A stretch of DNA of 64,000 nt from Gemmatimonas sp. (GTDB taxonomy: Bacteria; Gemmatimonadota; Gemmatimonadetes; Gemmatimonadales; Gemmatimonadaceae), in assembly GCA_031414535.1 (NCBI GenBank), contig JANNVQ010000008.1, forward strand, positions 1-64,000. The letters are read 5' to 3'. Below, in pieces: positions 47,642 through 64,000 of the stretch. Every line of letters starts with the position of its first letter. Position 1 is the stretch's first letter. Both the position numbers and the translations under genes were made by a program. The notes under the pieces are model-generated. The model did not search any database. It was not told where the DNA came from and saw only the letters and a program-made list of their open reading frames with translations.

Positions 47642-47643
47642 CT

Positions 47644-50600
47644 GTGACAACGAGCGGAATGAACTTTAGAACGATGCCGGCGGACCTGACCGCTGACGCA
47701 CTGGAGCAGGAAGTGATGGCCCGCTGGACCCGTGACGGTGTGTTTGCCGCCTCGCAGGCCGCGCGCGCCGATGCTCCGGCTTGGGTTTTTTACGAAGGCC
47801 CTCCTACCGCGAACGGGAAGCCGGGCATTCATCACGTATTCGCGCGCACGGTGAAGGATCTGTTCTGCCGTCATCGCGCCATGCTGGGGCACCATGTGCC
47901 GCGGAAGGCCGGCTGGGACACGCACGGCCTCCCGGTCGAGATTGAAGTCGAAAAACAGCTCGGTCTCAGCGGCAAGCAGGACATCGAGCGCATCGGTGTG
48001 GCGGAGTTCAATCGCCGGTGCCGCGAGAGCGTGTGGACGTACAAGGGTGATTGGGAGGAGGTCAGCGCCCGCATGGGCTACTGGCTCGACTACGACGACC
48101 CGTACGTGACCTACACGAATGAGTATGTGGAAAGCGTGTGGTGGGCGCTGAAGACGCTGCACACGAAGAATCTGCTGTATCAAGGGCACAAGATTTTGCC
48201 GTACTGTGCGAGGTGTGGGACGGCACTGTCGTCGCACGAACTGGCGCAGGGGTACGAGGATGTTGAGGATCCGAGCGTGTATGTGGCGCTCGATTTGGAG
48301 ACGGGACGGATGACGGATGACGGAAGCTTGAAGCATCCGTCATCCGTCATCCGTCGAAGAATTATCGTGTGGACCACCACCCCGTGGACCCTCGTCTCCA
48401 ACGTCGCCCTCGCAGTGAATCCCGAGCTCAGCTACGTGGAGCTGCGGAAGAAGAGCGTTTCCGATTGGACCATCATTCTCGCTGAGGCGCGGGCGTCGGC
48501 GGTGTTGGGCGCCGACTATCGTGATCGTTGGGATGAGGTGGCGCTCGTGAAGGGCACTGCGCTCGTTGGCATGAAGTACAAGCGACCCTTGGATTGGGTG
48601 GAGTATCCCGACGAGGGCAACACCGAGTTGATCGTGGGCGAGGAGTTCGTCTCGGCTGACGATGGCTCGGGTGTCGTACATATGGCACCGGCCTTCGGTG
48701 CTGATGACTACGCGGCGGGGCAGCGGCACAAGCTGGCGTTCGTAAATCCGGTAAACGCGCGCGGCGAGTTCCCCGCGGCGATGCCGTTGGTGGGCGGACT
48801 GTTCGTGAAGAAGGCCGACCCGCTCATCATCGAAGAGCTCGAGCGGCGCGACCAGCTCTGGAAGTCGCAGCAGTTCGTGCACTCGTATCCGCACTGCTGG
48901 CGCTGCCGCACGCCGCTCCTGTACTACGCGCGTGGCTCGTGGTTCGTGCGCACCACGGCGTACAAGGACCGGATGATGGCGCGCAACGCCGCCGTCAATT
49001 GGAATCCGCCGGAAGTGGGTGCGGGTCGCTTTGGTTCTTGGCTCGAGAACAACATTGACTGGGCCATCTCGCGCGATCGCTACTGGGGCACGCCATTGCC
49101 CGTGTGGGTGAACGACGAAGACACCGATGAGATTGAAGTCATCGGATCATTCGCCGAGCTCGCCGCAAAGGTGGGGCGCGCGTTGCCGGACGACTTTGAT
49201 CCGCACAAGCCGCACATCGATACGTACACGTGGCCTGCGCCAAGTGGGAAGGGCACGATGCGTCGTGTGCCGGAAGTCATTGATACGTGGTTCGATTCGG
49301 GCTCGATGCCGTTTGCCCAGTGGGGATATCCCCACCAGGCGGGCAGCGCGGAGAAGGTGGCGCGCTACTTTCCGGCGGATTTTATCGCCGAAGGCGTGGA
49401 CCAGACGCGAGGGTGGTTTTACTCGTTGCTCGCCATCGCAACTGGTTTGGGTGATGCCTTGCCCGGAAATGCGGCGGACACTGGACGGATGACGGATGAC
49501 GGAAGCGGACCAGCGTCCGTCATCCGTCATCCGTCCCCGTTGGCGTCCCCCTACCGCGCCGTGGTCGTCAACGATTTGGTGTTGGACGCCAACGGGCAAA
49601 AGATGTCCAAGTCGCGTGGCAATACCGTGGATCCGCGGCAAGTGATGTCGCGACACGGGGCTGATGCCGTGCGGCTATTCCTGATGGCGAGTTCGCAGGT
49701 GTGGGTGCCGCGCCGCTTTGATGAGTCGGTGATTCGCGAGACGGCGGGGCGCTTCCTCGTGACGTTGCGGAACGTGTACTCGGGCATTTTTGCCCAGTAC
49801 GCCAACTTTGGGTGGACGCCGAGTGCCGAGGATCCGGCGCCGAGTGCGCGTCCGGTGTTGGATCGCTGGGTGCTGTCGCGTCTCGCCTCGGTAGAGCATG
49901 AAGTCGATGCGGCGTTGCTGCGCTTCGACGCGACAGCCGCGTCGCGGCTGCTCATGGAGTTTGTCACGGAAGACGTCGCCAATTGGTACGTGCGTCTGTC
50001 ACGCTCACGCTTTTACGACGTGACGAGCGAGGACAATCGGGCCGCCTTCGCGACGCTGCACGAGGTGCTCGTGGTAGTGTCGCGCTTGCTGGCGCCCTTC
50101 GCGCCGTTTGTGTCGGATTGGATGCACGTGGAGCTCACGGGGCAATCCGTACACTTGGCCGATTTTCGTCGTCACGCGGCGTCTGCCTCCGTGCTGCCGC
50201 GCGACGAAGGGCTCGAGCGCGCGATGTCTGCCGCGCGCACGCTCTCCACGCTCGGCCGTGCCGCGCGAGAGTCGGCGGGCATCAAGGTGCGGCAGCCGCT
50301 CGGCACGCTCACCTGTGTCACGCCGGGTATTGAGGCGACATGGCACGCGATGATTGCGCCGCTCGTTGCGGCGGAACTGAACATCAAGTCCGTGCGCTTT
50401 GAGGATTCCGCCGCGGACTGGGTGCGCCTCGAAGGCAAGGCGAACTTTCCTGTGTTGGGGAAGGTTGTCGGCGCCGCGATGAAGGCGACGAAGCCGGTGG
50501 TGGAGAATCTCGACCAAGCGCAGTTGAGGACTATCGAAGGCGGCGGTATGGTGACGGTAGACGTGCCGGGCCACGGACCACTCGAGTTGGATGCGACGCG

Positions 50601-50967
50601 GGTGACGATTGCTGCCAAGGCCTCAACGACGTTAGTCGTGCAGCAGGGCGAGGGCATGTCCGTCGCATTGGATCCGGCGTTGACGCCGGAGTTGCGCGCG
50701 GAGGGTATGGCCCGTGAAGTGGTGAGCCGTGTGCAGCGCCTGCGAAAGGAAAGCGGGCTCGCCGTCAGTGATCGGATTCGCCTGGTGGTGGCGGCGACGA
50801 TTGAGGTGCAGCAAGCCCTGCGTGTGCACGCGCAGTGGGTTGCATCAGAAGTGTTGGCCCGGGACTGCGTCATCGCCGATGCGCTCCCGACCCCCGCGTG
50901 GCCCGCGACCGCCGAGCTTGAACTCGACGGTACGATGGCGCGCATCGCCCTTTGCAAGGACAGTTGA
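47644..50967 (+). CDS. ileS: Isoleucine--tRNA ligase, type 2, with GIHH signature and two repeat insertions
   Basis: EGPPTANG, GWDTHGLPVE, WTTTPWTL, DWAISRDRYWG, EGVDQTRGWF and KMSKS; type-2 C-terminal REVVSRVQRLRK. Confidence 0.97.
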   Translation: MTTSGMNFRTMPADLTADALEQEVMARWTRDGVFAASQAARADAPAWVFYEGPPTANGKPGIHHVFARTVKDLFCRHRAMLGHHVPRKAGWDTHGLPVEIEVEKQLGLSGKQDIERIGVAEFNRRCRESVWTYKGDWEEVSARMGYWLDYDDPYVTYTNEYVESVWWALKTLHTKNLLYQGHKILPYCARCGTALSSHELAQGYEDVEDPSVYVALDLETGRMTDDGSLKHPSSVIRRRIIVWTTTPWTLVSNVALAVNPELSYVELRKKSVSDWTIILAEARASAVLGADYRDRWDEVALVKGTALVGMKYKRPLDWVEYPDEGNTELIVGEEFVSADDGSGVVHMAPAFGADDYAAGQRHKLAFVNPVNARGEFPAAMPLVGGLFVKKADPLIIEELERRDQLWKSQQFVHSYPHCWRCRTPLLYYARGSWFVRTTAYKDRMMARNAAVNWNPPEVGAGRFGSWLENNIDWAISRDRYWGTPLPVWVNDEDTDEIEVIGSFAELAAKVGRALPDDFDPHKPHIDTYTWPAPSGKGTMRRVPEVIDTWFDSGSMPFAQWGYPHQAGSAEKVARYFPADFIAEGVDQTRGWFYSLLAIATGLGDALPGNAADTGRMTDDGSGPASVIRHPSPLASPYRAVVVNDLVLDANGQKMSKSRGNTVDPRQVMSRHGADAVRLFLMASSQVWVPRRFDESVIRETAGRFLVTLRNVYSGIFAQYANFGWTPSAEDPAPSARPVLDRWVLSRLASVEHEVDAALLRFDATAASRLLMEFVTEDVANWYVRLSRSRFYDVTSEDNRAAFATLHEVLVVVSRLLAPFAPFVSDWMHVELTGQSVHLADFRRHAASASVLPRDEGLERAMSAARTLSTLGRAARESAGIKVRQPLGTLTCVTPGIEATWHAMIAPLVAAELNIKSVRFEDSAADWVRLEGKANFPVLGKVVGAAMKATKPVVENLDQAQLRTIEGGGMVTVDVPGHGPLELDATRVTIAAKASTTLVVQQGEGMSVALDPALTPELRAEGMAREVVSRVQRLRKESGLAVSDRIRLVVAATIEVQQALRVHAQWVASEVLARDCVIADALPTPAWPATAELELDGTMARIALCKDS
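48304..48355. repeat. GACGGAT palindromic element inserted in frame in ileS (copy 1)
   Basis: GGACGGATGACGGATGACGGAAGC...CATCCGTCATCCGTCATCCGTC, read as GRMTDDGSLKHPSSVIR. Confidence 0.92.
49483..49536. repeat. GACGGAT palindromic element inserted in frame in ileS (copy 2)
   Basis: GGACGGATGACGGATGACGGAAGC...TCCGTCATCCGTCATCCGTCC, read as GRMTDDGSGPASVIRHPS. Confidence 0.92.
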
Positions 50968-50969
50968 TT

Positions 50970-51392
50970 ATGGCGACCCCGGCTCCTAGCGGTGAGAAGA
51001 AGTACAAGCCGTTTCCGAAGAAGCAGATCCAGTACTTCGAGAAGCGTTTGCTCGACGAGCGTAAGCGCGTGCTCAAGGAGCTCGGTCACTACGACGAAAC
51101 CTTCGGCAACACGCCGCAGGGCGCGGACGGCGACCTGAGCGCCTATTCGTTCCATATGGCGGATCAAGGCACCGACGCGATGGAGCGCGAGAAAGCCTTC
51201 CTGTTCGCCTCTAAAGAAGGGCGCTTCCTCTGGCACGTAGATCAGGCGCTGCGCCGCTTGTACCGCACGCCCGATGAGTTCGGGAAGTGCCACAACTGCG
51301 GTGGCGAAGTGGGCTTTGACCGACTCGATGCACTACCGCACGCGCGGTATTGCATTGACTGCAAGCAGCGTGAGGAAGATGGCAAGAAGTGA
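50970..51392 (+). CDS. dksA: TraR/DksA-family C4 zinc-finger regulator
   Basis: HMADQGTD coiled-coil tip; CHNC...RLDALP.ARYCIDC. Confidence 0.85.
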   Translation: MATPAPSGEKKYKPFPKKQIQYFEKRLLDERKRVLKELGHYDETFGNTPQGADGDLSAYSFHMADQGTDAMEREKAFLFASKEGRFLWHVDQALRRLYRTPDEFGKCHNCGGEVGFDRLDALPHARYCIDCKQREEDGKK

Positions 51393-51960
51393 GCCCGGGG
51401 GCTTCGGCCCCGCGTCAGTGTTGGGCATCGTCGGTGGAATTGTTCTCGCCGACGCGTTCACCAAATTGCTGGCCGTCGATCGGCTGATGCCCATCCATAC
51501 GCCGCACCCGGTGATTGGGGAGTGGCTGCGCTGGACGCTGGTCTACAATCCCGGTGCGGCCTTTGGGTTGCATTTGGGCCCTTGGTCGCGGTGGATTTTC
51601 GTGGTGCTCACCTTCGTGGCACTCGGCGTGCTGTGGAACATGTATCGCACCAGTGTGCCGGACGCGCGCATCAAAGTGTTGGCGCTGTCCAGCATCGCCG
51701 GTGGCGCGATTGGCAATCTCGTAGATCGCCTTCGCTCGTCGCGCGGTGTGGTGGATTTCATTGACGTTGGCGTGCGCGACTGGCGCTGGCCCACGTTCAA
51801 CATTGCGGATATCGCGGTGAGCTGCGGGGCGATTGCGCTGGCAATCGTGCTGTGGCGCGAGGACGCCGAGATGGCGCGCCAGCACAAGGCGCATAGTGAG
51901 CGAGCGTCGGGCGATCCCGACGCGGCGAACGGCAGTACGTCCCGCACGACGCAGAGATGA
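51379..51960 (+). CDS. lspA: Lipoprotein signal peptidase II
   Basis: NPGAAFG, GGAIGNLVDR, VVDFI and FNIAD. Confidence 0.95.
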   Translation: MARSEPGGFGPASVLGIVGGIVLADAFTKLLAVDRLMPIHTPHPVIGEWLRWTLVYNPGAAFGLHLGPWSRWIFVVLTFVALGVLWNMYRTSVPDARIKVLALSSIAGGAIGNLVDRLRSSRGVVDFIDVGVRDWRWPTFNIADIAVSCGAIALAIVLWREDAEMARQHKAHSERASGDPDAANGSTSRTTQR

Positions 51961-51961
51961 T

Positions 51962-52960
51962 ATGACGGAGCCGCTTGGACCTGGGCGGCACAGCTTCAGC
52001 ATCGCCGACGAGGACGTCGGCGAACGGCTGGACTTGGTGATTGCGCGCCGCGCGGGCTGTTCGCGTACGCAGGCCGCCACGCACATCGCGACGGGGCGCG
52101 CGACGGTGGATGGTGTGGTTGAGCGCGCGTCGTTCCGGCCGGAAGGGGGCGAGACCATCGAATTGGAGATCCCCGCGCCGCAGGGCCGCGCGGTGGTGCC
52201 GGAGCAGATTCCCATCAGCGTGGTCTTTGAGGACGAAGACCTCGTGGTGGTGGATAAGCCGGCGGGTATGGTGGTGCATCCGGCGCCCGGCAACTGGACT
52301 GGTACCTTGGTGAACGCGTTGCTTGGGCGCGGTCAGGAGCTCGCGGACGGTGGCGGTCCCGAGCGCGCCGGCCTCGTGCATCGCCTCGACAAGGAAACGA
52401 GCGGATTGTTGGTCGTCGCCAAGACCGACCGCGCGCTCAAGTCGCTGTCGGGGCAAATTGCGGCGCGCACGGTGAAGCGACGCTACGCCGCGCTCTCATG
52501 GGGGCATCTGGACGCCGACAAAATGACGGTGGACAAGCCCATCGGCCGCGATCCCAACGACCGCACGCGGATGTCCATTCAGACGGACGGGCGGCAAGCG
52601 CGCACGGATTTTACCCGTTTGGGACGCTTCGATTCGGTGGATTTGCTCCGTGCGGAGCTCCATACCGGACGGACGCACCAGATTCGCGTGCATTTGGCCA
52701 GTATCGGGCACCCGGTGGTCGGCGACGACACCTACGGGGGTGGCGGGGGACGCCGTCTGGTGGAATTGCCTCCCAAACGGCATTTCCTTCATGCCGCCTG
52801 GCTCGTCTTTACTCACCCGGTGTCGGGGGCGCGGATGGAAATGCGCTCCCCGTTGCCAGAGGACCTCCGGCGCTCGTTGGCGAGAGTGGCAGGGGACCAG
52901 GCTTTGATTGCTCACCCCGACGCCCTGGAGTACTTTGGCTACTATAGAGCGTCCGAGTGA
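51962..52960 (+). CDS. rluD: RluA/RluD-family pseudouridine synthase
   Basis: S4 domain (RLD), KPAGMVVHP, HRLDKETSG and TGRTHQIRVH. Confidence 0.93.
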   Translation: MTEPLGPGRHSFSIADEDVGERLDLVIARRAGCSRTQAATHIATGRATVDGVVERASFRPEGGETIELEIPAPQGRAVVPEQIPISVVFEDEDLVVVDKPAGMVVHPAPGNWTGTLVNALLGRGQELADGGGPERAGLVHRLDKETSGLLVVAKTDRALKSLSGQIAARTVKRRYAALSWGHLDADKMTVDKPIGRDPNDRTRMSIQTDGRQARTDFTRLGRFDSVDLLRAELHTGRTHQIRVHLASIGHPVVGDDTYGGGGGRRLVELPPKRHFLHAAWLVFTHPVSGARMEMRSPLPEDLRRSLARVAGDQALIAHPDALEYFGYYRASE

Positions 52961-53417
52961 CCTGACCGGCTTACCGACCCTCGAGGGGGGTGAGGCGGCT
53001 GGCGATGAGCATCGGTACTTGGTGGCGAAGGCCGCTGGCCAACGGCTGGCGATTCCCTTGCTGTCATGTCGTGAGATACTGACGGTCCGTGTCGTGACGC
53101 GCCTCCCAGGCGCACCGTCTTGGATTGCCGGGCTCGTGAATGTGCGGGGAGCGGTGCTGACGGTTCTGGATCTGAGTGCGCGCTTAGGATCAGCGGCTGC
53201 CGCGGGGCCGGTGGTGATTGTGGATGTGGATGGCCGTCGTCTTGGAATTCGCGTGGACGCGGTGGATGGGGTCGAGCGTGCCGCAGGTGTGGAGGAGTCG
53301 GTGGATGCAGCGCGGTCGGCGGCGGGAGCCTTGAAAGGGCTCGCAGTCCTGCCGCTCGGTGCCGCGTTGGTGGTGGATGTGGTGGCCCTGCAGCGCGCGG
53401 CAATCGCCGACGTGTGA
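52935..53417 (+). CDS. cheW: CheW coupling protein
   Basis: TRLPGAPSWIAGLVNVRGAVLTVLDL and GIRVDAV; likely TTG start after GGAG. Confidence 0.88.
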   Translation: MATIERPSDLTGLPTLEGGEAAGDEHRYLVAKAAGQRLAIPLLSCREILTVRVVTRLPGAPSWIAGLVNVRGAVLTVLDLSARLGSAAAAGPVVIVDVDGRRLGIRVDAVDGVERAAGVEESVDAARSAAGALKGLAVLPLGAALVVDVVALQRAAIADV

Positions 53418-53460
53418 GCGCGGGGCCCGACAGGCCTAACTGGATTGGGGAGGGGAACGC

Positions 53461-53823
53461 GTGGCTCCGACGGTACTCATCTGCGACGATGCGATTTTCA
53501 TGCGGACGATGGTTGGCGACATCCTGACGCAGGCGGGCTTCGAGATCGTGGGCGAAGCCGAGACGGGTACACAGGCTGTGGAGCGCTATAAGGCGCTCCG
53601 CCCTGATCTCGTCACCATGGACATCGTGAGGCCCGATATGGGCGGCATTGACGCCGTCCGCGAGATTACAAAGTTCGATCCGAACGCCAAGGTGCTGATG
53701 TGCAGCGCAATGGGACAGCAGTCGCTGGTGGTGGAAGCGATCCAGGCCGGGGCCAAGGACTTCGTGGTGAAGCCCTTCCAGCCGAGCCGCGTGCTGGAGG
53801 CGGTGCAGCGCGTCCTGGGCTAA
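53461..53823 (+). CDS. cheY: CheY response regulator (Bacillus/Thermotoga-like)
   Basis: DDAIFMR, PDLVTMDI, MCSAMGQQ and DFVVKPF. Confidence 0.93.
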   Translation: MAPTVLICDDAIFMRTMVGDILTQAGFEIVGEAETGTQAVERYKALRPDLVTMDIVRPDMGGIDAVREITKFDPNAKVLMCSAMGQQSLVVEAIQAGAKDFVVKPFQPSRVLEAVQRVLG

Positions 53824-53853
53824 GGGCCCGCTCGCGCCCCGTCGTCTCGCCAC

Positions 53854-55851
53854 GTGGATCCCTCGCGCTACGCTGACCTGTTTCGCACCGAGAGCCGTGA
53901 ACAGCTCTCGACGGTGAATCGCGCCCTGCTCTCCATCGAGCAGGGGGACGATCCCGCGGAGCCGGTGGCGGCGATTTTTCGCGGTGTTCACACCATTAAG
54001 GGCATGAGCGCCACGATGGGGTACACGGCTGTTGCGGAGTTCTCGCACGAGCTGGAGTCGTTGCTCTCGAAGGTGCGTGATGGCGACCAAACTGTCAGCG
54101 CGGAGTTGATGGACGCGCTGTTCGCTGCGGCCGACGCGCTCGAGGACGGGGTGGAGCACTCGCGCGAAGGCAGCACGCTGACCCCAGGCATGCAGCAAGC
54201 GCTTGAGCGCTTGCACGACATTGCCGGTGGGCGCTCCACCGCGGAGTTCCGCGTGGTGCGGCCGAGTGGCGTGGTGAAGATGCCCGCTGAGGACCTCGAT
54301 CCGCTTGATGGAGAAGGCACGCTGGTGCACGTGGTGCAGGAGCCCACAGTGGTCCTGCCCGGCGTGCGCGCTTTCATGGCGGTGCAGCGACTGGGGGACT
54401 TGGGCGAGATTCTCGCCTGCGTCCCTTCGGTGGAGAAACTGCAGGCTGCGACGACGCCGCAAACTTTCAGTGTGCGTCTGCGCACCGCGGCCGGTGAGGC
54501 GGAGTTGGCACACGCGGTGCGGAGCGCGGGCGATGTGGCCGGCGTGCGCGTCGAAGAGCGCGCGGCAGTGTCGGTGATTGCGCCCGCATCCGCTACCATC
54601 GCAATCGCGTCCTCAACGCTTGATGAAGTCACTAACGCCGCGCATCCCTTGCGTCGCGCCAGTGATGCCTTTGGCGTTGCCGACACACTCGGGCCCGCAG
54701 AGCGCGGCAGCAGCCCGCGCGCCCGGCACGTGCGCATCGAACTCTCGCGCTTGGACGCCTTGCTCGACCTCGTGGGCGAGTTGGTCATTGTGCGCGGCCG
54801 CCTGCGGGCGCTCACCCGCGCCAAGGCCGACGCGCCGCTGCAAGACGCGATGGACGACGCGACACGGCTCATCTCCGACTTGCAGGCGGAGATCATGACG
54901 AGCCGCCTTGTCCCAGTGGGACAGGTGTTCGATCGCTTCCCGCGCTTGGTGCGCGACGTGGCGCGTGCGCTGGGCAAGGATGTGCTGTTCAGCATCGAAG
55001 GAAAGGACATCGAGATGGACCGCTCGGTGCTCGACGAGATCGGCGAGCCGGTGGTGCATCTGCTGCGCAACGCGGTGGACCACGGACTGGAGATGCCGGC
55101 GGTACGCGAGGCGGCGGGCAAGGCGCGAGCGGGTCGGCTCGTGCTCTCTGCACAGCGAGACCGCAACTCCGTTGTGATCACGGTCAAGGACGACGGCAAA
55201 GGCATCGATCGCGCGCGGGTGATGGCGCGCGCGGTGGCCAGTGGACTGCTGCCGGCCGGCACCGAGCGCCTCGACGATGATGATTTGCTGCGCTGCATCG
55301 CGCAGCCGGGATTCTCGACGTCGGAGCGGGTGACAGAGGTGTCTGGCCGCGGCGTGGGCGTGGACGCGGTGATTTCGCGCGTGCGCGCACTCGGTGGATC
55401 GGTGGAGTTGCAGACCCAGCCCGGCCGCGGTACCAGCGTGACGCTACGCTTGCCGGTGACGCTGGCCATTGTGCGCGCGCTGCTGGCGCGCATCGGCGCC
55501 GAGCGCTACGCGCTGCCGCTCACGCATGTACGCGAGACGCTTGAGCGGGGGACGGCCGTACTGCGCCAGGTACAGGGGCGCGAGATGCTCATCCTGCGCG
55601 ATGAGGTGCTGCCCGTCTTGCGCCTGCGCGACGTGGTACTTCTGCCGGGGCAGGTGGCGGGTGAGGAGATTGTCGTGATTGAACGTGGCGAGCGGCGGGC
55701 GGCCTTGGTGGTGGACGAGCTCACCGCGCAGGAAGACATCGTAGTGAAGTCCTTCGACGGAGCTCGGGACGGGCTCGCGCTGTTCAGTGGCGCGACCATC
55801 CTTGCGGACGGGGCGCCGGCACTCATCGTGGACGTGGGGAGCTTGCTATGA
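53854..55851 (+). CDS. cheA: CheA histidine kinase
   Basis: Hpt FRGVHTIKG, P2-like region, LVGELVI, HLLRNAVDHG, DDGKG, SGRGVG and a C-terminal CheW domain. Confidence 0.95.
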   Translation: MDPSRYADLFRTESREQLSTVNRALLSIEQGDDPAEPVAAIFRGVHTIKGMSATMGYTAVAEFSHELESLLSKVRDGDQTVSAELMDALFAAADALEDGVEHSREGSTLTPGMQQALERLHDIAGGRSTAEFRVVRPSGVVKMPAEDLDPLDGEGTLVHVVQEPTVVLPGVRAFMAVQRLGDLGEILACVPSVEKLQAATTPQTFSVRLRTAAGEAELAHAVRSAGDVAGVRVEERAAVSVIAPASATIAIASSTLDEVTNAAHPLRRASDAFGVADTLGPAERGSSPRARHVRIELSRLDALLDLVGELVIVRGRLRALTRAKADAPLQDAMDDATRLISDLQAEIMTSRLVPVGQVFDRFPRLVRDVARALGKDVLFSIEGKDIEMDRSVLDEIGEPVVHLLRNAVDHGLEMPAVREAAGKARAGRLVLSAQRDRNSVVITVKDDGKGIDRARVMARAVASGLLPAGTERLDDDDLLRCIAQPGFSTSERVTEVSGRGVGVDAVISRVRALGGSVELQTQPGRGTSVTLRLPVTLAIVRALLARIGAERYALPLTHVRETLERGTAVLRQVQGREMLILRDEVLPVLRLRDVVLLPGQVAGEEIVVIERGERRAALVVDELTAQEDIVVKSFDGARDGLALFSGATILADGAPALIVDVGSLL

Positions 55852-56474
55852 CGATTCCATTGGACGACGTCCGGAACCTTTCGCGCGCTGCGCTCGACGC
55901 ACTGCGTGAAGTGGCCAACATCGGCGCGGGGCACGCTGCGACGGCGCTCTCGCAGATTACCGGGCAGCGCATCATGATCTCGGTGCCGCAAATCAATGTG
56001 GCGGCTATCGAGGATGTGCCGAATCAGATCGCCTCGGGCGAGGAACCAGTGGCCGGCATCGCCATCAAAGTCGAGGGCGATCTCACGGGCCTCACGCTAC
56101 TCGTGTTCCCGAAGCCGATCGCCTATCGCATCGCGAGCCTGATGATGGGCGGCCGGCCGGTGACGCAGCTCGGGGCCATCGAGGAAAGCGCACTCAAGGA
56201 GGCGGGGAACATTCTCTCGGCGGCGTATCTCAATGCGCTGGCGGAGTTTCTTGGCATGCGCATTCTCAACTCACCGCCTCTGCTTGCGGTGGACATGAGC
56301 GATGCCATTCTGAGCTCCACCTATGTGGAGACCTCGCAAGGTGCCTCGCACGTGTTCTGCGTGGAGAGCGAGTTCCAGCTCGCCAACGATACGCTTCCGT
56401 TGCGAGGTTTCTTCCTGCTGCTGCCTGACCCGCCATCGCTGCGGGCCATGCTCACGGCCATCAAGGTTTCGTGA
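55848..56474 (+). CDS. cheC: CheC phosphatase
   Basis: Two ExxN sites: DALREVANIGAGHAATALS and SALKEAGNIL. Confidence 0.9.
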   Translation: MTIPLDDVRNLSRAALDALREVANIGAGHAATALSQITGQRIMISVPQINVAAIEDVPNQIASGEEPVAGIAIKVEGDLTGLTLLVFPKPIAYRIASLMMGGRPVTQLGAIEESALKEAGNILSAAYLNALAEFLGMRILNSPPLLAVDMSDAILSSTYVETSQGASHVFCVESEFQLANDTLPLRGFFLLLPDPPSLRAMLTAIKVS

Positions 56475-59179
56475 CCCGTCCGTCCATCGCCGTGTCAACG
56501 CGGGACCGCGAGGTCCTGCGTGGCTTTGCGCGCCGCATTGATGCGGCGGACGCCGGCGCGCACAATAACCTGGGTGTGTTGTATTACACGAAGGGATTGT
56601 ACGAAGAAGCGGTAGAGGCCTTCACGAAGGCGCTCGACCTGGACCCCAAGATGCAGGTGGCGCAGCGCAATCTCGAAGTCGCCTACTTCAACACGGGCTA
56701 CTACGATTCGCGCGTCGCGGAGCTGCGTGAGCGCTTGCGCCACAAGCCCGATGATCGCGATGCTCGTTGGGAGCTCGGCCGCGCCTTCGCCTTGCTCGGT
56801 CAGCCAGAAGACGCCATCCCGGAATTTCAGGCGCTCCTCGCGCTGCGTCCGGGCGACGTGGGCACGATGATCCAGCTGGGACTCGCCGAGAAGGCGGCGG
56901 GGCGCCTGGGCGTGGGACTGAGTTGGTTCCGCACCGCCTTGGGTCGCGATCCGCAGAGTGGATTGCTGCATTTCTACGTGGGCGAGGTGCTGTACAATCA
57001 AGGCGCGTTCGATGATGCGCTGAGCTCCTTGCATCGCGCCATCCAGTTGAATCCTGATCATCCGGACTCGCATTTCCTGCTCTCCTTCGTACTCGGCGAC
57101 ATGGGCCGCCACGATGAAGCGCAGGCCGCCTCCAAGCGCGCCATCCAGTTGAACCCGGCGCTTTCGCGGGCCCAAGCCAACCTCTCGCTCGACGAGTATG
57201 ACCAAAAGAAGTACGAGCAGTTGGTGCCGGGACGTCAGGCAAGAAAGTCGCAGGCGCAAATGCGCATTGCCGAAGGCGAGCCCTTGGCGCACTACACGCT
57301 AGGGCAGGCGTTCCGCCAGCAGGGATTGCTTTCCGAGGCAAGTCGCGAGTACGACACCGCGCTGCTGCGGGGTGAGGATCGTGCGCTGGTGGTGCAGGCG
57401 ATGGCCGAACTGCACTTGCTGCGCAAGGAACCGCAGCCGGCCATCGCGTTGTACGACGAGTTGCTGGCGCAGCAGTCTGATTCACCCAAGCTGTGGAACG
57501 AACGCGGCGTGGCCTTGCATCAAACTGGTGACCATGCGGCGGCGGCAGAGAGTTATGGCAAGGCGCTGCAGGTGGACCCGACCTACGTCATCGCGCGGAA
57601 CAATCTCGCGGTGGCACTGTTCCACGACAATTCGCCCGAAGACTCGATTGACGAGTTCCGCGAGGCATTGCGTTCGAACCCGATGTTCATCAAGGCGCGG
57701 CTCAATCTCGCGCTCTTGCTCGTGCGCGGGAAGCGTTTTCAGCTTGCGCTTGAGGCGTATCGGCAGGTGTTGGAGCACGACGCCGAAGCCCCGTTGGCCT
57801 GGAATGGCGTGGGCTTGGTGCTCAGTGAGATGCGCCGGTTCGACGAGGCGCGCACGGCCTACGCCCGCGCCATTCAGTCCAAGCCGGATTTCGCCGAAGC
57901 GCATTACAACTTGAGCTTCACGCTCTCCAATCTTGGCGACTACGCTGGGGCGCTGCGCGAAACCAAGCGTGCGCTGGAGATGGATCCGTACTACACGCCT
58001 CAGACCTTCCAACTCGCCATTGACCTCGAGTTTGAGGACGTAGACCTAACGGTTGTGCCGGATTTGGGCGGCGAGAAGCGGATAAGCGGCGGGGTGGAGA
58101 CCTTCAGCTTCGATAACTCGATCCTCGACTCCATCTTCAAGCAGCTTGATCCCGTGGTGGCGCCAGAACAGGCGCCAGCGGAGGAAGGTGATCCCTACGC
58201 CCTCGCGGAGGACTTCCTCTCAAAGGGGTTGGTCGATCGTGCGATGGCGGAGGTGAGGCGTGCTCTGGGGCGCGGCGCGGAACCAGCGCGGGGCGATGCT
58301 TTGCTCGGAGAGGCGTTTGGACGTCAGGGTGCCTGGGGCGATGCGCTCGAGCGCTTTGAAGCCGCTCGCCGAGTGGACGCGCGCAACACCGAGGCGCTAC
58401 GCGGCGAGACCCAAGCCTTGCTCATGCTGGGGCGCGGCGCGGAAGCTGCGGCGCCCGCGGCCATCTTGCTTGAACTGCTTCCAACCGACGTGGATGCCTT
58501 GTTACTCGTGGCGACGGCGCGCTTTGAGAGCGGTGACGCCCAAGGTGCGCTCGCAGTACTCGACGACGCACGGCGCGCCGATCCCACGCGCGCCGAGGTG
58601 CTGCGTGGCGTGGGCAACGTCCTGCGCGCGATGGAGAACATTGACGCCGCCATCTCCGCGTATCGTCATGCGCTTACGATTGACGGCGACTTTGCGGCCG
58701 TGCGCTACGACTTGGCGCAGTTGCTGATCACGCGTGGCGATTTCTCCGAGGCCGAGCGCGAGTTGCTGCTCGCGCTCGACGCCGTGCCCACCTACGCCGA
58801 TGCAACGCTGTCGCTGGCATCCTTGCACCGGCAGCGCGAGGAAACGGGGAAGGCACTGGCCTTGCTCGTGGACTTCCTCGAGCGCGATCCGTACTCGTTT
58901 GACGGGCTCGTGGCGCTGGGTGAACTGCTCCTCGACATGGGCCGCAATGAGGATGCTGCCTTTGCCTTCCAACGCGTGCTGCGCTTTGATCCCGCGCACG
59001 TGGGTGCCGTGTTCCATCAGGGTTTGCTCCTCTCACGCCAGCAGCGCTTTCGTGAGGCGGTAGCCTGCTTCCGACGCGTGGCCGAATTGGAGCCGCAGGG
59101 TGAGTTCGCCCGCCGAGCCTTCCGCGAAGCGCGCGCAATCGCGCAGCGCGTGGATGGCTTGGACGAGGAGGCGGGCTAA
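56471..59179 (+). CDS. Large cytoplasmic TPR-repeat protein
   Basis: Many TPR units (AHNNLGVLY...ALDLDP; AHYNL...ALEMDP); no signal peptide. Confidence 0.9.
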   Translation: MTRPSIAVSTRDREVLRGFARRIDAADAGAHNNLGVLYYTKGLYEEAVEAFTKALDLDPKMQVAQRNLEVAYFNTGYYDSRVAELRERLRHKPDDRDARWELGRAFALLGQPEDAIPEFQALLALRPGDVGTMIQLGLAEKAAGRLGVGLSWFRTALGRDPQSGLLHFYVGEVLYNQGAFDDALSSLHRAIQLNPDHPDSHFLLSFVLGDMGRHDEAQAASKRAIQLNPALSRAQANLSLDEYDQKKYEQLVPGRQARKSQAQMRIAEGEPLAHYTLGQAFRQQGLLSEASREYDTALLRGEDRALVVQAMAELHLLRKEPQPAIALYDELLAQQSDSPKLWNERGVALHQTGDHAAAAESYGKALQVDPTYVIARNNLAVALFHDNSPEDSIDEFREALRSNPMFIKARLNLALLLVRGKRFQLALEAYRQVLEHDAEAPLAWNGVGLVLSEMRRFDEARTAYARAIQSKPDFAEAHYNLSFTLSNLGDYAGALRETKRALEMDPYYTPQTFQLAIDLEFEDVDLTVVPDLGGEKRISGGVETFSFDNSILDSIFKQLDPVVAPEQAPAEEGDPYALAEDFLSKGLVDRAMAEVRRALGRGAEPARGDALLGEAFGRQGAWGDALERFEAARRVDARNTEALRGETQALLMLGRGAEAAAPAAILLELLPTDVDALLLVATARFESGDAQGALAVLDDARRADPTRAEVLRGVGNVLRAMENIDAAISAYRHALTIDGDFAAVRYDLAQLLITRGDFSEAERELLLALDAVPTYADATLSLASLHRQREETGKALALLVDFLERDPYSFDGLVALGELLLDMGRNEDAAFAFQRVLRFDPAHVGAVFHQGLLLSRQQRFREAVACFRRVAELEPQGEFARRAFREARAIAQRVDGLDEEAG

Positions 59180-60159
59180 TGGCCATTGAAGGCCCGCTGA
59201 AGGAGCTCGGCATCCACGACGTCTTCCAACTGCTCGATCTGAGCCGGAAGACGGGGGTGCTCATCGTCACCTCGCAGCTTCGTGACAACGAAGGCGAGGT
59301 GCTGTTCGAGAATGGCAAGGTCATTTCGGCGAGCATCAAGTCCAATCCGCACCGCATCGGCGACCTACTCGTGCGCACAGGGCGGCTGACGGATGCGGAT
59401 CTCGCACGCGTGCGCGATTCGCAGGCTGCTGGCGACAAGCGCCGCTTCGGGGAAATCCTTATCGCCCTCGGCTTGGTCACGGCGCGCGAGATTGAGCGGC
59501 AGATGCGCTTGCAGATTGAAGCTGTGGTGTTTGAATTGATGGCGTGGTCCGAAGGAAACTTCCGGTTCACCGAAGGACTGGATGATGACGCCTTTCGCGA
59601 TGCTTCGGCGCCCTTGGGCACAGAGTCGCTCCTGATGGAAGGCGCGCGGCGCATTGACGAATGGTCACGCATCGCGGATCGCGTACCCAACCTGTCGGTG
59701 ATTCCTGACCTCGCGCCCGGCGACGCTGATCATCCAGCGCTGCTCGATCTGTTGCCGCAGGAGTGGAAGGTGTTGGCCATGATTGACGGCGCAACAGATC
59801 TGCGCACCATCGCCGCGACGGTCTCGATGAGCGAGTTCGATGTGGCGCGCGTCATGTACGGACTCGTGAGCACGGGCGTCGTGATATTGCGGCAACCGAC
59901 GCGCAACAGTTCCACCATCGCGCTGCCGAGTGAACTCCGGAAGGCCTCGAAGCTCACGCCGCACGGTGTGGTGCCTTCGGCGCTGGTGCGTGGGGCGGAG
60001 TATTTCCGTCGCGGCGCACTCTCCGATGGAATCGCCACCTGGTCTGCGTTCATCGAGAGCACGCCGAAGTATCCGTCGGCTACAGACCTCCGCGACGCCG
60101 TGCGGGGCGCGACGAAGCTCGTGGAAGTGCTCGACCGGGAGGTGCCGCGTGAGCGGTGA
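59179..60159 (+). CDS. DUF4388 (PatA-N-like) domain protein with MshEN-like repeats and a wHTH-like segment
   Basis: IEGPL....DVFQLL..SRKTGVL, RIGDLLV / RFGEILI, WSEGNFRF, LLMEGARRIDEW and EWKVL..IDG. Confidence 0.85.
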   Translation: MAIEGPLKELGIHDVFQLLDLSRKTGVLIVTSQLRDNEGEVLFENGKVISASIKSNPHRIGDLLVRTGRLTDADLARVRDSQAAGDKRRFGEILIALGLVTAREIERQMRLQIEAVVFELMAWSEGNFRFTEGLDDDAFRDASAPLGTESLLMEGARRIDEWSRIADRVPNLSVIPDLAPGDADHPALLDLLPQEWKVLAMIDGATDLRTIAATVSMSEFDVARVMYGLVSTGVVILRQPTRNSSTIALPSELRKASKLTPHGVVPSALVRGAEYFRRGALSDGIATWSAFIESTPKYPSATDLRDAVRGATKLVEVLDREVPRER

Positions 60160-60961
60160 CATTCGGTCCATGAGCGAGCAGCTCGCCGCGGATCCGGCGA
60201 GCTTGGTGTTCTTGCCGCTCGCCGAGCAGCTGCTCGGACGCGGGGAGCTGGCGCACGCATCACGTGTGGCGCGGAAGGGTGCCGAGCGGCACGCGCATCG
60301 CGCTGATGTGCACGACTTGGTGGCGCGCATCGCGCTCGCGCAGGGCGAGGAGACCGCGGCCGAGCGCGCCTGGATTTCGTCACTGGCCATTGCGCCGGAC
60401 TTTGGCGCCGCGCATCGTGGACTGGGCTTCCTCTGCTATCGTCAGGGGCGCTGGGACGACGCGCAGACGCACCTGGCCAAGGCGCGCACGATGACGCCCG
60501 GTGATCCGGCGCTCGAGGCCGCGTGGGAAGCGCTCCACGTGGCGCGCACGGAAGACTTACGTACGGCACAGGCCGCTCCCGAACTTTCCGCCGCCGAGTC
60601 AGCTGGTGCGTTGTTTGCGGGACAGATCGGCGAGACGGGACAGGTGGCGCTTTTGCTCGACTCCGATGGTTTGGTGGTGGCAGGGCAGTACATGACAGCT
60701 CAGGGCGAGGATCTGGGCGCCATCATCGGCGCGCACTTGTCTGGCGTCAGTGACGAAGCGGCGCGCGCTATGCGGCACTTTGGGCTTGGCACCTGGACGC
60801 GCATCGCGATTGAAACGGAAGCCGCCACCGTAGTGATGGCGCCCACGGGAGAGAGCGTCACTCTCGTGGCGGCGCCGCGCGATGTTCCCTTGGGCTTGGT
60901 GCGACGGACGCTTGATCACTGCGTGCAGGCCGCCGCCGCGTGGTTGGGAGGTGGCGTATGA
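60149..60961 (+). CDS. TPR + roadblock/LC7 fusion protein
   Basis: N-terminal DPASLVFLPLAE and TPR units; C-terminal ALLLDSDGLVVA roadblock signature. Confidence 0.78.
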   Translation: MSGDIRSMSEQLAADPASLVFLPLAEQLLGRGELAHASRVARKGAERHAHRADVHDLVARIALAQGEETAAERAWISSLAIAPDFGAAHRGLGFLCYRQGRWDDAQTHLAKARTMTPGDPALEAAWEALHVARTEDLRTAQAAPELSAAESAGALFAGQIGETGQVALLLDSDGLVVAGQYMTAQGEDLGAIIGAHLSGVSDEAARAMRHFGLGTWTRIAIETEAATVVMAPTGESVTLVAAPRDVPLGLVRRTLDHCVQAAAAWLGGGV

Positions 60962-61299
60962 GTAGCTTTGCCCCGCTACTCGCCACCGTGACGCGGCACC
61001 GCGGCGTGATGGCCTGTCTGGTTGTGGCCGAGGAAGATGGCATCGTCGTGGAGGGCACGGCGCAGATGGGCGTGGACACTGCGGCGTTCGCCGCGCTCAC
61101 GGCTTCGCTCTACCGGAAGGCCGCACGGGCCGCGGCGAGTGCTGGATTCGGCGGCACCAGCTTCTGCGATTTGGAGGCCCAACAGGGTCGGGTGCTCGCA
61201 GCGGGCCGCAACGGTCTCGTGCTGGTGGCAGTGGCTGAGCCGCGGGCGAATCTCGGTTTGCTGCGCGTGGAACTGCTGAAGGCGGCGGCGGCCCTGTGA
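60958..61299 (+). CDS. Roadblock/LC7 (MglB-like) protein
   Basis: GVMACLVV.EEDGIVV, LEAQQGRV and NLGLLR. Confidence 0.85.
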   Translation: MSSFAPLLATVTRHRGVMACLVVAEEDGIVVEGTAQMGVDTAAFAALTASLYRKAARAAASAGFGGTSFCDLEAQQGRVLAAGRNGLVLVAVAEPRANLGLLRVELLKAAAAL

Positions 61300-61769
61300 T
61301 TCGTCACTCCATCACTATTGGTTGGGCCGATGCGCCACTCAAGCGCTTTGTGGATGACGCGCGTTTGGAACACGCCATCTTGATGCACACGAGTGGCCAA
61401 GTGCTCGCACAGGTTGGATTTCAACGCTCGATTGACGTGCAGACCGCCTGCGCGCTCTCGGCGGCCATCAACGCGTCGGCCGATCACTTGGGGAAGATGG
61501 TGGACGGGCGCCCGTTCACCGGTCTGCATTATGGTGGGAAGGCGCGACAGATTTATCTTGGCTTACTGCAGACATCGAGCGGTCCGCTGCTGCTGCTGGC
61601 CGTGTTCGACACCGAAAGTTCGCTGGGCATCGTGCAGCTCTATCTCAAGGAGCTGCAGGCGCACGTAGCGGCAGCCGCTCCGGCGGCGGAAGACGAATCG
61701 CCGGCCTTGGCTGAGAACTTTGAGTCGGATCTCAACCGCAACCTCGCCCAACTCTTCGGGAGGGGCTGA
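61296..61769 (+). CDS. mglB: MglB-like GTPase-activating roadblock protein
   Basis: SGQVLAQ.G, ALSAA...A, F..L.Y.G, VFD.ESSLG.V.L and an acidic C-terminal helix; immediately upstream of mglA. Confidence 0.75.
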   Translation: MIRHSITIGWADAPLKRFVDDARLEHAILMHTSGQVLAQVGFQRSIDVQTACALSAAINASADHLGKMVDGRPFTGLHYGGKARQIYLGLLQTSSGPLLLLAVFDTESSLGIVQLYLKELQAHVAAAAPAAEDESPALAENFESDLNRNLAQLFGRG

Positions 61770-61803
61770 TGCGAGACTCCATCCATCACCGCGAGACCGT
61801 CCA

Positions 61804-62403
61804 GTGAGCCTCGTTAACTACGCCACGCGCGAGATCACCTGCAAGATTGTCTACTACGGACCAGGTCGGTCCGGCAAGACGACCAATCTGCATTACATCC
61901 ACGGTCAGGTGCCGACGGATCGTAAGGGGCAGATGGTGTCGCTCGCCACGCAGACCGACCGCACGCTGTTCTTTGACTTCCTGCCGATTGATCTCGGAAC
62001 CATCTCCGGCTTCTCGACGAGATTCCAGCTGTACACGGTGCCCGGGCAGGTCTACTACCAGACCACGCGCAAGCTTGTGCTGCAAGGCGCGGACGGGGTG
62101 GTGTTTGTGGCGGATTCGCAGTCGCGGCAGCTGCAGGAGAACATCGAAAGTTTTCAGGACCTGCACGAGAATTTGGCGGAGCAGGGCGTGGACGCGCGCA
62201 GCATGCCGCTGGTGGTGCAGTACAACAAAATTGATTTGCCCGACGAATTACGCACGCCGGTGCCCGAGCTCGAGGACGCCATCAATTTCCGCGGCGTCCC
62301 ATCGTTCTCCGCGGACGCGCTGCACGGCCCGGGGGTGTTTGAGACGCTACGCGGCATCTCGGAACAGGTGTTGCGTAAGCTGAGCGCTGGGCGGAACGGC
62401 TAG
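61804..62403 (+). CDS. mglA: MglA-family small Ras-like GTPase
   Basis: KIVYYGPGRSGKTTNL, DRTLFFDF, YTVPGQV, GADGVVFVADS and QYNKID. Confidence 0.93.
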   Translation: MSLVNYATREITCKIVYYGPGRSGKTTNLHYIHGQVPTDRKGQMVSLATQTDRTLFFDFLPIDLGTISGFSTRFQLYTVPGQVYYQTTRKLVLQGADGVVFVADSQSRQLQENIESFQDLHENLAEQGVDARSMPLVVQYNKIDLPDELRTPVPELEDAINFRGVPSFSADALHGPGVFETLRGISEQVLRKLSAGRNG

Positions 62404-62404
62404 G

Positions 62405-64000
62405 ATGCGTCTCGACCCTCGCTTCACCTTTGAACGCTTGGTGGTCGGCGCGGCGAATCGTCTCGCGGCCGCGGCGGCGCGGGCCGTGGCCGAAGCGCCG
62501 GGCACGACCTACAACCCGCTCTTCATCTACGGCGGCTCCGGGCTCGGGAAGACGCATCTGCTCACCGCCACGGCGCATCTGCTTCAGCACCTGCAGCCGA
62601 AGGCCGAAGTGCTCGCGCTTTCGCTGGACGAGTTCTCGGAGCAGTATCACGCCGCCGTGAGCGCGGGCGAGACATCGGCCTTTGGGCATCGCATTGCCGG
62701 GGTGGACCTGCTGCTGCTCGACGATTTGCAGTTTGTGACTGGGCGGCGGGAGATGCAGGCGGAATTGTTGCGCCTCTTCTCCGTGATGCAGGACAGCAAT
62801 CGGCAAATTGTCTGCGCCAGCGACCGTCCACCGTCAGAGATTGCCGACGTGGATGAGCGTTTGATTTCGCGGATGGCGGGTGGCCTCGTGGTGGATGTGG
62901 GGCTGCCGGAGTATGAGGCTCGCGTGGCCATTCTTCGCTCGGCCATCGCTGAGCGCGAGATTAGTGTGCCCGATGGCGCGGTGGAGCGCCTCGCCGAGCG
63001 CGGCATCTCCAGTGTGCGCGAGTTGCAGGGCTTGCTGAATCAGTGGATTGCACAGGAGTCCATGGGCGCCAGTGCTCGCAAGATGCCAACGCCGATGCCC
63101 GGCGGTGTGGATGCGTTACGGCCCTCCGGCGAGTTCCTCTCCTTTCTCTCCGATGTGGCCGCTGTGGTGCAGGAGCAGGTGGAGACATGGCAGGTGCGTC
63201 TGCGCGAGGTGATTGCGTACTGGAAGGGCGAGGGCTATCGCACGGCGGTGCTCGAGCGCGCCCTCGCCCTGCCAAGCGAACCCGATGTGCAGGGACTGCT
63301 TGCCATTTATGTGCAGGCGGTGGATCACTTGCGGGTGCTGGAGCGCGAGGCCACGGCGGTGGACGGATCCCTTGGCGGTCACGAACTGTTTCGCGATCCC
63401 GAGCGCCTACAAGAAGCCGAAGAGTTCGTGGACAAGGCACTCGCTGGTGAGTTCCCCCCGGGTGGGCCCAATCCGTCGTTTACGCGCGAAGGCTTTGACG
63501 TTGGCTCGGCAAATCAGCTCGCCGTGCACGCTGCCGACGCCGTGATTGCCCAGCCGGGTACCCGCTACAACCCCTTGCTCATCACGGGGCCGAGCGGCGT
63601 GGGCAAGACGCACCTCGTGCACGCTATCGGTAACGCCATTGCCGCGCGCAGCGAGGGGCAGGTGCTGGCGGCCTGCGTGCATGCGCAGGCGCTGGTGGAT
63701 GAATTGATCGCGGCCATTCAACAGGGCACGGTGGAGCGGTGGAGAGCGCGCTACCGTGCGGCCGGTATCCTGGTGATTGACGACATCCAGTTCCTCGCGG
63801 GTAAGGAGCGCACGCAGGACGAGTTCTTCTTCGTATTCAATGCGCTCATCGAGGACGGCAAACAGATTATCCTCTCGTCGGATCGCGTGCCGTCCGAGAT
63901 ACCCGACCTTGCCGCGCGCCTGCGGTCGCGCTTCGAGGGCGGACTCATAGCGGAGATTCAGTCGCCGGACCGTCCGTTGCGCGAGAAGCTTGCGGCGCGA
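62405..64000 (+). CDS. Protein with two tandem DnaA/Hda-type AAA+ domains (runs off the window; absent from the ORF track)
   Basis: Hand translation from ATG 62405 is open to the window end. Domain 1: YNPLFIYGGSGLGKTHL, LLDDLQF, SDRPP, RLISR, SVRELQG. Domain 2: YNPLLITGPSGVGKTHL, IDDIQFL, SSDR, RLRSRFEGG. Confidence 0.9.
   Translation, partial: MRLDPRFTFERLVVGAANRLAAAAARAVAEAPGTTYNPLFIYGGSGLGKTHLLTATAHLLQHLQPKAEVLALSLDEFSEQYHAAVSAGETSAFGHRIAGVDLLLLDDLQFVTGRREMQAELLRLFSVMQDSNRQIVCASDRPPSEIADVDERLISRMAGGLVVDVGLPEYEARVAILRSAIAEREISVPDGAVERLAERGISSVRELQGLLNQWIAQESMGASARKMPTPMPGGVDALRPSGEFLSFLSDVAAVVQEQVETWQVRLREVIAYWKGEGYRTAVLERALALPSEPDVQGLLAIYVQAVDHLRVLEREATAVDGSLGGHELFRDPERLQEAEEFVDKALAGEFPPGGPNPSFTREGFDVGSANQLAVHAADAVIAQPGTRYNPLLITGPSGVGKTHLVHAIGNAIAARSEGQVLAACVHAQALVDELIAAIQQGTVERWRARYRAAGILVIDDIQFLAGKERTQDEFFFVFNALIEDGKQIILSSDRVPSEIPDLAARLRSRFEGGLIAEIQSPDRPLREKLAAR

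Follow-up and report, generated by a model that had tools for sequence, protein, structure and literature searches.

A DnaA-derived protein and its fixed PATAN-TPR neighbour in a conserved chemosensory-MglA gene string of Gemmatimonadota

What are a chemosensory pathway, an MglA GTPase and a DnaA-like ATPase doing in one run of genes? The question is raised by a stretch of 64,000 nucleotides from Gemmatimonas sp. (assembly GCA_031414535.1, contig JANNVQ010000008.1, here contig C8, positions 1 to 64,000; hereafter the window), and named homologues assign the organism to the Gemmatimonadaceae. A sequence-only reading had described eleven genes at its end, from cheW to a tandem DnaA-like gene, as an undescribed unit in which a chemosensory core controls an MglA/MglB polarity switch and is wired to a replication-initiator-derived ATPase. 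All eleven genes are present there on the + strand, with Pfam families matching the labels given and junctions of 43, 30, -4, -4, -1, 10, -4, -4, 34 and 1 nt. The unit itself was incomplete, as the end of the window cuts an 18-gene string; seven further coupled genes follow the tandem DnaA gene on C8 with gaps of -8 to 23 nt (Table 1). Our leading account, to which we give about an even chance, is that the DnaA-derived protein would be an adaptor which, together with a PATAN-TPR protein encoded just beyond the window, forms a hub that brings CheY, MglA and cyclic di-GMP (c-di-GMP) together to act on the type IV pilus motor.

The string is conserved. The linker between the two ATPase domains of the tandem DnaA protein was detected in 198 genomes out of 301 sampled in the phylum (by family, f1 55/70, f2 121/125, f3 3/3, f4 4/6, f5 1/1, f7 9/48 and f8 4/4) and was not found in f6 or f9-f12 in the same search; the tally counts in G155, a genome used for no other result. 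Some true carriers escape the linker query: the 15 negatives of f1 comprised ten genomes with a mini form of the gene (see below), one with ATPase 1 only and four in which the string was lost or decayed, and G076 proved to be a contig end. Loci were inspected in 20 carriers picked for long contigs, then in the f4, f5, f7 and f8 carriers and in all 15 f1 negatives. Full or nearly full gene order was observed in six families (f1, f2, f3, f4, f5 and f8) and, as far as contigs reach, in a set of 80 loci. The succession mglA, DnaA-like gene, PATAN-TPR gene was kept at 20 of 20 loci of the first set and at 72 of 72 long-enough loci of the second. Conservation of gene order in relatives, which the sequence-only reading had proposed to check, is thus borne out across six families within the class and, in part, by a WOR-3-like contig. 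One divergent relative is named WOR-3, and the genes mglA-mglB-tandem DnaA-PATAN/TPR-cheR-cheD-cheB-TPR lie on a contig that shares 69% identity with it (L157:2214-10293); this locus has no cheA or cheY, an integrase-like gene upstream, and an MglA with the plain P-loop rather than that of the cluster. A genome scan with the PATAN-TPR alignment covered the best 80 of 572 relatives, all titled Gemmatimonadota or unnamed bacterium, and is uninformative on other phyla. The branching of the PATAN-TPR tree agrees with the families, a sign of vertical descent with repeated loss of the string.

Within the string, the fixed neighbour of the DnaA-like gene is the PATAN-TPR gene and not mglA. A gene bearing the motifs of the DnaA-derived protein stands directly upstream of PATAN-TPR at all 42 inspected loci in which PATAN-TPR is visible and at 80 of 80 loci of the second set, two sets that may overlap. 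The adjacency persists without MglA (five of five f7 loci, G202, G070, G072, G182 and G050), without CheA (f7, G202, G112 and G166), and in G271, where mglA is separated from the DnaA-like gene by a break in the string. An in-frame fusion of the DnaA-derived and PATAN-TPR proteins (P0247, with four members of equal length from three sources) gives modest support, as a single natural fusion, to docking of the two proteins. PATAN-TPR contains both tandem 24-residue MshEN motifs with a 6-residue spacer (NF053729, 51.7 bits against a cut-off of 38), the arrangement described for the MshEN c-di-GMP receptor in PMC5013675. Within this genome, PATAN-TPR and PilB are the only proteins to match the strict MshEN pattern, and the PATAN domains of the string carry no fused receiver domain. 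As a separate observation, PATAN-TPR lacks the c-di-GMP alpha-clip in nine of the ten genomes with a mini protein (L030, L031, L033, L140, L141, L144, L145, L154 and L155), which form one clade; the tenth, G112, retains it.

Natural deletions take the rest of the string apart. All three roadblock genes and cheR are gone in G065 and G092, and cheR and cheB (and cheD) are gone in G037, G036, G023 and three loci of the 80-locus set. Both Che and MglA are gone, leaving the DnaA-like gene and PATAN-TPR, at five of five f7 loci and in G202, which also keeps the last TPR gene. The Che and Mgl halves have each been lost independently. A linear chain from Che to MglA as the core of the system, as first supposed, is not supported by G070, G072, G182 and G050, which keep cheA, cheY and cheC without the cluster mglA, or by G112 and G166, which keep mglA without the cluster cheA. 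In G089 and G087, the entire block is cleanly missing from the rluD site. Between rluD and the peptidase gene, L138 (G273), L146 (G041) and L139 (G083) hold remnants of the string in decay.

The DnaA-derived protein itself has also been pared down. ATPase 2 is deleted in G104, G047, G202 and P0071, with G202 showing the C-terminal motif only. Ten genomes, spread over four genera, have lost both ATPase domains together with the linker; what is left is an open reading frame (ORF) of about 60-75 residues in which the motif-1 helix is joined to the C-terminal motif. Hidden Markov models (HMMs) built from full-length proteins only matched both motifs in 10 of 10 mini-ORFs (17-30 bits for motif 1, 8-37 bits for motif 2), while the best of 1020 shuffles reached 6.2 and 6.7. 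On the tree, nine of the mini forms make up one clade (100/99), and the tenth, G112, sits among carriers of the full-length gene; judged by this placement, they arose at least twice. The ATPase domains are dispensable in these ten genomes, which keep other parts of the string. The new element described here is a DnaA-derived protein that, by these comparisons, behaves in evolution like an adaptor.

The full-length protein begins at DnaA domain III, of which it has two copies. Its predicted structure lies 1.3 Å from Bacillus DnaA domain III, and Walker A/B, sensor I/II and the arginine finger are present in the domain-III copies. No match to domain I (DnaA_N) or domain IV (Bac_DnaA_C) was found in the tandem protein, and the linker fails to align to domain IV; as a control, the complete DnaA encoded beside dnaN on C57 matches both. 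An ESM Atlas search with the linker gave no usable match. The protein reaches 467.9 bits with TIGR00362 (DnaA; cut-off 343.9) over two matched stretches, which fits the database names of the family. Hda carries an N-terminal clamp-binding motif. The tandem protein has no segment ahead of domain III and fails the Hda test (TIGR03420, 148.8 bits against a cut-off of 194.8). Because it has no origin-binding domain and has shrunk to two motifs in ten relatives, the tandem protein is likely an adaptor for PATAN-TPR rather than a link to DNA replication.

The two ATPase domains differ among 28 full-length homologues, a count that excludes proteins below 520 residues, including the split genes of L013, L020 and L054 (split by a frameshift or stop that may be real or an assembly error) and the natural short forms L035 and L039. 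In ATPase 1, Walker A, Walker B and sensor I are invariant, the arginine finger and sensor II are kept in 26 of the 28, and isoleucine at the position of Bacillus I190 in none (0/28). In ATPase 2, that position holds isoleucine or valine in 22/28 and the R202 equivalent is kept in 26/28; the domain is degenerate in distant families (Walker A lysine 22/28, sensor I aspartate 12/28, K222 11/28). In Bacillus DnaA, I190 and K222 serve single-strand binding and R202 filament formation, as given in PMC6669920.

Other architectures occur among proteins with DnaA domains. P0191 (1990 residues) and P0193 (1876 residues) consist of MshEN, a DnaA ATPase, a very long helical region and a second DnaA ATPase. 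P0225, P0235, P0236, P0240 and P0266 (1084-1420 residues) have seven to nine profile-matching stretches, apparently linker repeats, and one DnaA ATPase domain; four of these five end in zinc ribbons, and they belong to a wider DnaA-domain family without a domain IV match. P0183 is a tandem DnaA protein with a C-terminal receiver domain, possibly an artefact. P0109, considered as a DnaA-DUF4388 fusion, was rejected since its reading is out of frame ahead of the junction and once more within the second part.

What kind of chemosensory pathway feeds the string? Its CheA, the sole CheA found in the genome, has a P2 domain and no receiver domain, and the catalytic motifs of CheA, CheY, CheC, CheB and CheD are present. 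cheY is the best-conserved Che gene (76-98% identity among carriers of the first locus set), and the solved chains nearest to its product are CheY proteins (best 1tmy, 174 bits). The specificity residues listed for DifD are, to our knowledge, common to F1-type CheY in general. CheY has all five of the primary ones given in PMC4671073. The genome encodes three receptors, none in the string and all on other contigs; each has membrane-like segments and extends 155-156 residues past the hairpin tip, about 22 heptads. By the receptor class rule, we take this to mean a presumed 44-heptad (44H) length for all three. A CheA-receiver hybrid kinase and a soluble receptor are features of Frz. The analogy with Frz drawn at the outset does not fit: CheA has P2 and no receiver domain, CheC and CheD are both present, and all three receptors have membrane-like segments. 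CheC, CheD and P2-type CheA without a receiver are parts of F1-type or Dif-like systems in PMC2577667 and PMC4671073. Because CheC and CheD occur with a P2-containing CheA that lacks a receiver and with membrane receptors of presumed 44-heptad length, the Che part is, by its predicted components, an F1/Dif-type pathway and not Frz. Methyl-accepting chemotaxis proteins (MCPs) are present in 34 of 35 genomes with the cluster cheA and in 5 of 20 whose rluD site is without cheA, a tally from which five genomes were excluded (locus unchecked or cut by a contig end) and which, with kin not independent, is a pattern and not a statistic. The sole carrier of cheA without an MCP, G037, has a shortened cheA and no cheR, cheD or cheB. 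A second CheR/CheB match outside the cluster (G000:C14:30673-32067) is probably a CheB-CheR fusion.

The MglA of the cluster aligns with Myxococcus MglA (243 bits) in G1, the switch-I arginine motif, the PGQ motif and G4, and its nucleotide motifs are intact. Its P-loop, GPGRSGKT (G1), is kept in 32 of 33 cluster MglA copies. A plain mglB-mglA pair lies elsewhere in the genome, behind dnaX-ybaB-recR and before pgsA-cinA (G000:C54:75547-79661; names from translations), and its MglA (C54:75547-76224) is 49% identical to that of the cluster. The plain copies form a clade of their own (support 0.955). Because of this separate locus, the separate clade and its own P-loop, the cluster MglA is, on phylogenetic grounds, a second, specialised switch and not the genome's plain Myxococcus-type mglBA locus. 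The MglB-like roadblock gene adjoins mglA and is not present in G065, G092, G112 and G166. Plain-type MglA is also found in genomes that lost the cluster.

The output of the string is not a flagellum in this genome, because neither FliG nor flagellin was found in the 98% complete assembly. pilB-pilT-pilC and seven GGDEF domains are present. Among 34 cheA carriers, FliG is missing in 23 and present in 11, and PilM is present in all 34. According to 10.1101/2021.06.11.447907, PATAN domains in Synechocystis bind both PilB1 and PilC; the paper also notes MglAB near PATAN genes. Type IV pili would, by analogy, be the best output candidate, because of this binding, the restriction of the strict c-di-GMP motif to the proposed hub and PilB, and PilM in all 34 carriers. 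A search of the genome for GltG gave five weak matches, none over the cut-off. A second PilB-type ATPase, which combines an MshEN domain with a C-terminal receiver (G000:C31:18219-20537; L156:2220-4538), is widespread in the order. In G087, G202 and G247, FliG was found and a CheA dimerisation domain was not, apparently flagella without chemotaxis.

These parts, among them a complete F1/Dif-type pathway, a second MglA switch with its three roadblocks and two PATAN proteins, can be arranged into a tentative scheme. By established chemotaxis knowledge, receptors encoded elsewhere would pass their signal via CheW-CheA to CheY, CheC would serve as the phosphatase, and CheR, CheB and CheD would provide adaptation. 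MglA would cycle GTP under its roadblock partners, as in Myxococcus, and c-di-GMP would bind the alpha-clip of PATAN-TPR, where the motif is present. The tandem DnaA protein may dock on PATAN-TPR through motifs 1 and 2, as suggested by gene adjacency, the minimal forms and the one fusion; its ATPase domains would be an optional add-on that clusters the hub in an ATP-dependent oligomer. The PATAN domains would engage PilB/PilC, by analogy with Synechocystis, and set where and when pili extend. CheY-P, MglA-GTP and c-di-GMP would be parallel inputs to the hub, because each can be lost alone. The fusion of DnaA-domain proteins to an MshEN/PilB-type N-terminus in P0191 and P0193 counts in favour of a hub.

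Several points weigh against this scheme. ATPase 2 of the present protein keeps the equivalents of Bacillus I190, R202, R206, F218, K222, the arginine finger and R321. In the monomer model, the predicted local distance difference test (pLDDT) score is about 51 for motif 1 and 61-73 for motif 2, which fits docking motifs and shows no partner. Nine of the ten mini forms are one clade, hence two events and not ten. The pilus output is drawn by analogy; PilM is near-universal in the phylum (76 of 80 genomes; 17 of 20 without the cluster cheA) and so does not discriminate, and the second PilB, with its receiver domain, fails to track the cluster. In five flagellated carriers (G029, G125, G182, G027 and G264), the cluster CheA is the only CheA found, and a flagellar output is possible there.

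How do other arrangements of the same parts fare? The string might control exopolysaccharide or biofilm in the manner of Dif, with CheY as a phosphate sink, the kinase feeding another regulator, and PATAN/MglA reporting pilus state upstream. The five DifD residues in CheY and the c-di-GMP motif agree with this. The residues do not single out Dif, however, as F1-type CheY proteins generally share them; the string has no receptor, unlike Dif-like clusters, no polysaccharide gene was recognised beside it, and the EpsW model reached 62 bits against a cut-off of 200. We consider such control unlikely. The sequence-only reading had suggested a possible link to the cell cycle. In such a coupling, the tandem ATPase would co-assemble with DnaA or bind the unwound origin and so tie polarity or piliation to replication initiation. 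Retention of the single-strand and filament residues in ATPase 2, the 1.3 Å agreement with domain III, and the position of the string between divIVA-ileS-lspA and the dcw cluster speak for this link. It is nevertheless undercut by the lack of domains I and IV, by the complete DnaA elsewhere, and by the ten genomes that retain other string parts without either ATPase domain. Moreover, invariant catalytic residues occur in ATPase 1 alone, and there none of the 28 homologues has the I190 isoleucine; ATPase 2 is degenerate in distant families and deleted in the four cases above, and no DnaA box was found in C8:45000-72000. We regard cell-cycle coupling as distinctly improbable. A related idea, that the duplicated DnaA ATPase is an ATP-dependent, oligomeric scaffold which collects the CheY, MglA and c-di-GMP inputs on the PATAN-TPR hub at the pole and whose second domain still reads DnaA or the unwound origin, so that the replication cycle gates pilus polarity, is quite unlikely.

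A linear relay like that of Frz would have CheY-P act on the MglA/roadblock switch to reverse a non-pilus motility machine, for instance an unrecognised gliding motor, leaving PATAN and the DnaA-like protein as accessories. MglA, three roadblocks and Che genes do occur together in most carriers, and the catalytic motifs of MglA are kept; yet either half survives without the other, G065 and G092 lack all three roadblocks, the genome has no GltG over the cut-off, and the last pair retained in most reductions is PATAN-TPR with the motif protein. This relay seems to us very unlikely. Most improbable is an ordinary flagellar chemotaxis operon with unrelated passengers, or genomic hitch-hiking. The F1-type parts, FliG in 11 of 34 carriers with the cluster CheA the only one found in five, and spacing no tighter than in the upstream housekeeping run would suit it. 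Against it stand the lack of FliG in 23 of the 34 carriers tested and in this genome, an interleaved order kept over six families and partly in the WOR-3-like contig, and the clean absence of the whole block at the rluD site in G089 and G087.

Table 1. Features of the gene string and of the tandem DnaA-type protein (window positions, or contig C8 where stated)
Feature	Position	Strand	Evidence or remark
cheW, first of three in the string	52935..53417	+	Pfam CheW E 5e-23; TTG start, 26 nt overlap with rluD
cheY, single receiver domain, F1/Dif type	53461..53823	+	Pfam REC
cheA, Hpt-P2-dimer-HATPase-CheW	53854..55851	+	Pfam
cheC, CheY-P phosphatase family	55848..56474	+	Pfam CheC in two stretches; NCBIfam CheC_Thtogales E 3e-46, below cut-off
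TPR scaffold, 902 aa	56471..59179	+	Pfam TPR
PATAN (DUF4388) protein 1, degenerate c-di-GMP-type alpha-clip	59179..60159	+	Pfam DUF4388 E 3e-30; NF053729 32 bits, cut-off 38
TPR + roadblock protein	60170..60961	+	Pfam Robl_LC7
Roadblock protein 2	60958..61299	+	Pfam Robl_LC7 E 5e-5
MglB-like roadblock protein (third roadblock)	61296..61769	+	no Pfam match; phmmer to Myxococcus MglB 6izw_B E 6e-8
mglA paralogue, cluster clade, P-loop GPGRSGKT	61804..62403	+	243 bits to Myxococcus MglA
Tandem DnaA-domain-III protein, 633 aa	62405..64306 of C8 (window holds up to 64000)	+	Pfam Bac_DnaA twice
ATPase 1 of tandem protein	about aa 3-220		
Motif 1 of tandem protein, acidic-aromatic helix, aa 240-261	63122..63187	+	kept in minimal forms
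Helical linker of tandem protein	aa 262-346		
ATPase 2 of tandem protein	aa 356-587		
Motif 2 (C-terminal) of tandem protein	aa 610-633		
PATAN-TPR, two MshEN-type motifs, proposed hub	C8 64307-65923		beyond window
cheR	C8 65920-66765		beyond window
cheD	C8 66762-67241		beyond window
cheB	C8 67265-68335		beyond window
cheW (second)	C8 68332-68772		beyond window
cheW (third)	C8 68769-69254		beyond window
TPR gene, last of string	C8 69247-70107		beyond window

A yggS-divIVA-pnp-ileS-dksA-lspA-rluD run occupies window positions 45554-52960 and is tightly coupled into cheW; it includes a DivIVA gene (Pfam E 5e-33) upstream of the string in a Gram-negative lineage. Tight spacing, which had been read as a sign of one system, carries no such weight, as this housekeeping run is equally tight (-26 to 58 nt) and leads straight into cheW. 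The case for one system is made by conserved order and joint loss, not by spacing. In loci that reach far enough, the string is flanked by rluD upstream and mostly by a peptidase-MA gene, a 628-residue unknown and rsmH/dcw downstream. Scans for terminators (14 found, 14.0 by chance) and promoters (1 found, 1.8 by chance) were uninformative.

Do known systems account for the string? The PatA-type (PATAN-REC) regulators of the cyanobacterium Synechocystis PCC 6803, as described in 10.1101/2021.06.11.447907, share PATAN/DUF4388 with an alpha-clip, a chemosensory tie and a host with type IV pili. The string differs in having a separate CheY, PATAN fused to TPRs and an F1/Dif pathway, plus MglA, roadblocks and the DnaA-derived protein. 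We take the dif gene order to be cheW-cheY-cheA-cheC, the same as in the string. The Dif cluster of Myxococcus xanthus and the Dif-like clusters of Geobacter, as presented in PMC4671073 and PMC2577667, have in common with it CheW, CheY, CheA and CheC (plus CheD and CheR) and 44H-length membrane receptors. In contrast to these, the string has no receptor, includes CheB and three copies of CheW, and holds non-Che genes as well, eight of them between cheC and cheR and another at its end. Like Myxococcus MglA/MglB under Frz, it has a Group-1-like MglA, an MglB-like partner and TPR scaffolds; unlike there, its MglA is a second paralogue whose P-loop is distinct, with the plain pair located at dnaX-recR on C54, and the kinase is not FrzE-like. 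With DnaA and Hda, the tandem protein shares domain III, here in two copies, with Walker A/B, sensor I/II and the arginine finger. It departs from them in lacking domains I and IV, in falling below the Hda cut-off, in having its own linker and C-terminal motif, and in the dispensability of its ATPase domains.

Parts of the neighbourhood are on record. PMC4316618 notes Group 1 MglA in Gemmatimonadetes with PATAN neighbours, and its supplement file 3 gives one Gemmatimonas MglA as PATAN>MglA>-PATAN>, with the Che link and the DnaA-like gene unnamed there. What is already documented is therefore the core neighbourhood, but neither the Che genes nor what the middle gene encodes. The portion of PMC11580455 at hand contains nothing on the string. 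The statement that no characterised system has this composition stands, in that titles and abstract openings, with subscription journals largely uncovered, yielded no account of the system as a whole or of its tandem protein. The string is a real, conserved and uncharacterised system built of known kinds of parts.

In Myxococcus, the route from chemosensory pathways to the MglA switch or the pilus motor is still argued, and the genes are scattered there. Here all candidate parts stand in one string, in a phylum common in soil and water, and natural deletions point to a likely hub and to a 60-75-residue minimal adaptor. If the adaptor role is true, the string would be a clear case of the reuse of a DnaA ATPase domain outside replication, in a family that databases label DnaA or Hda.

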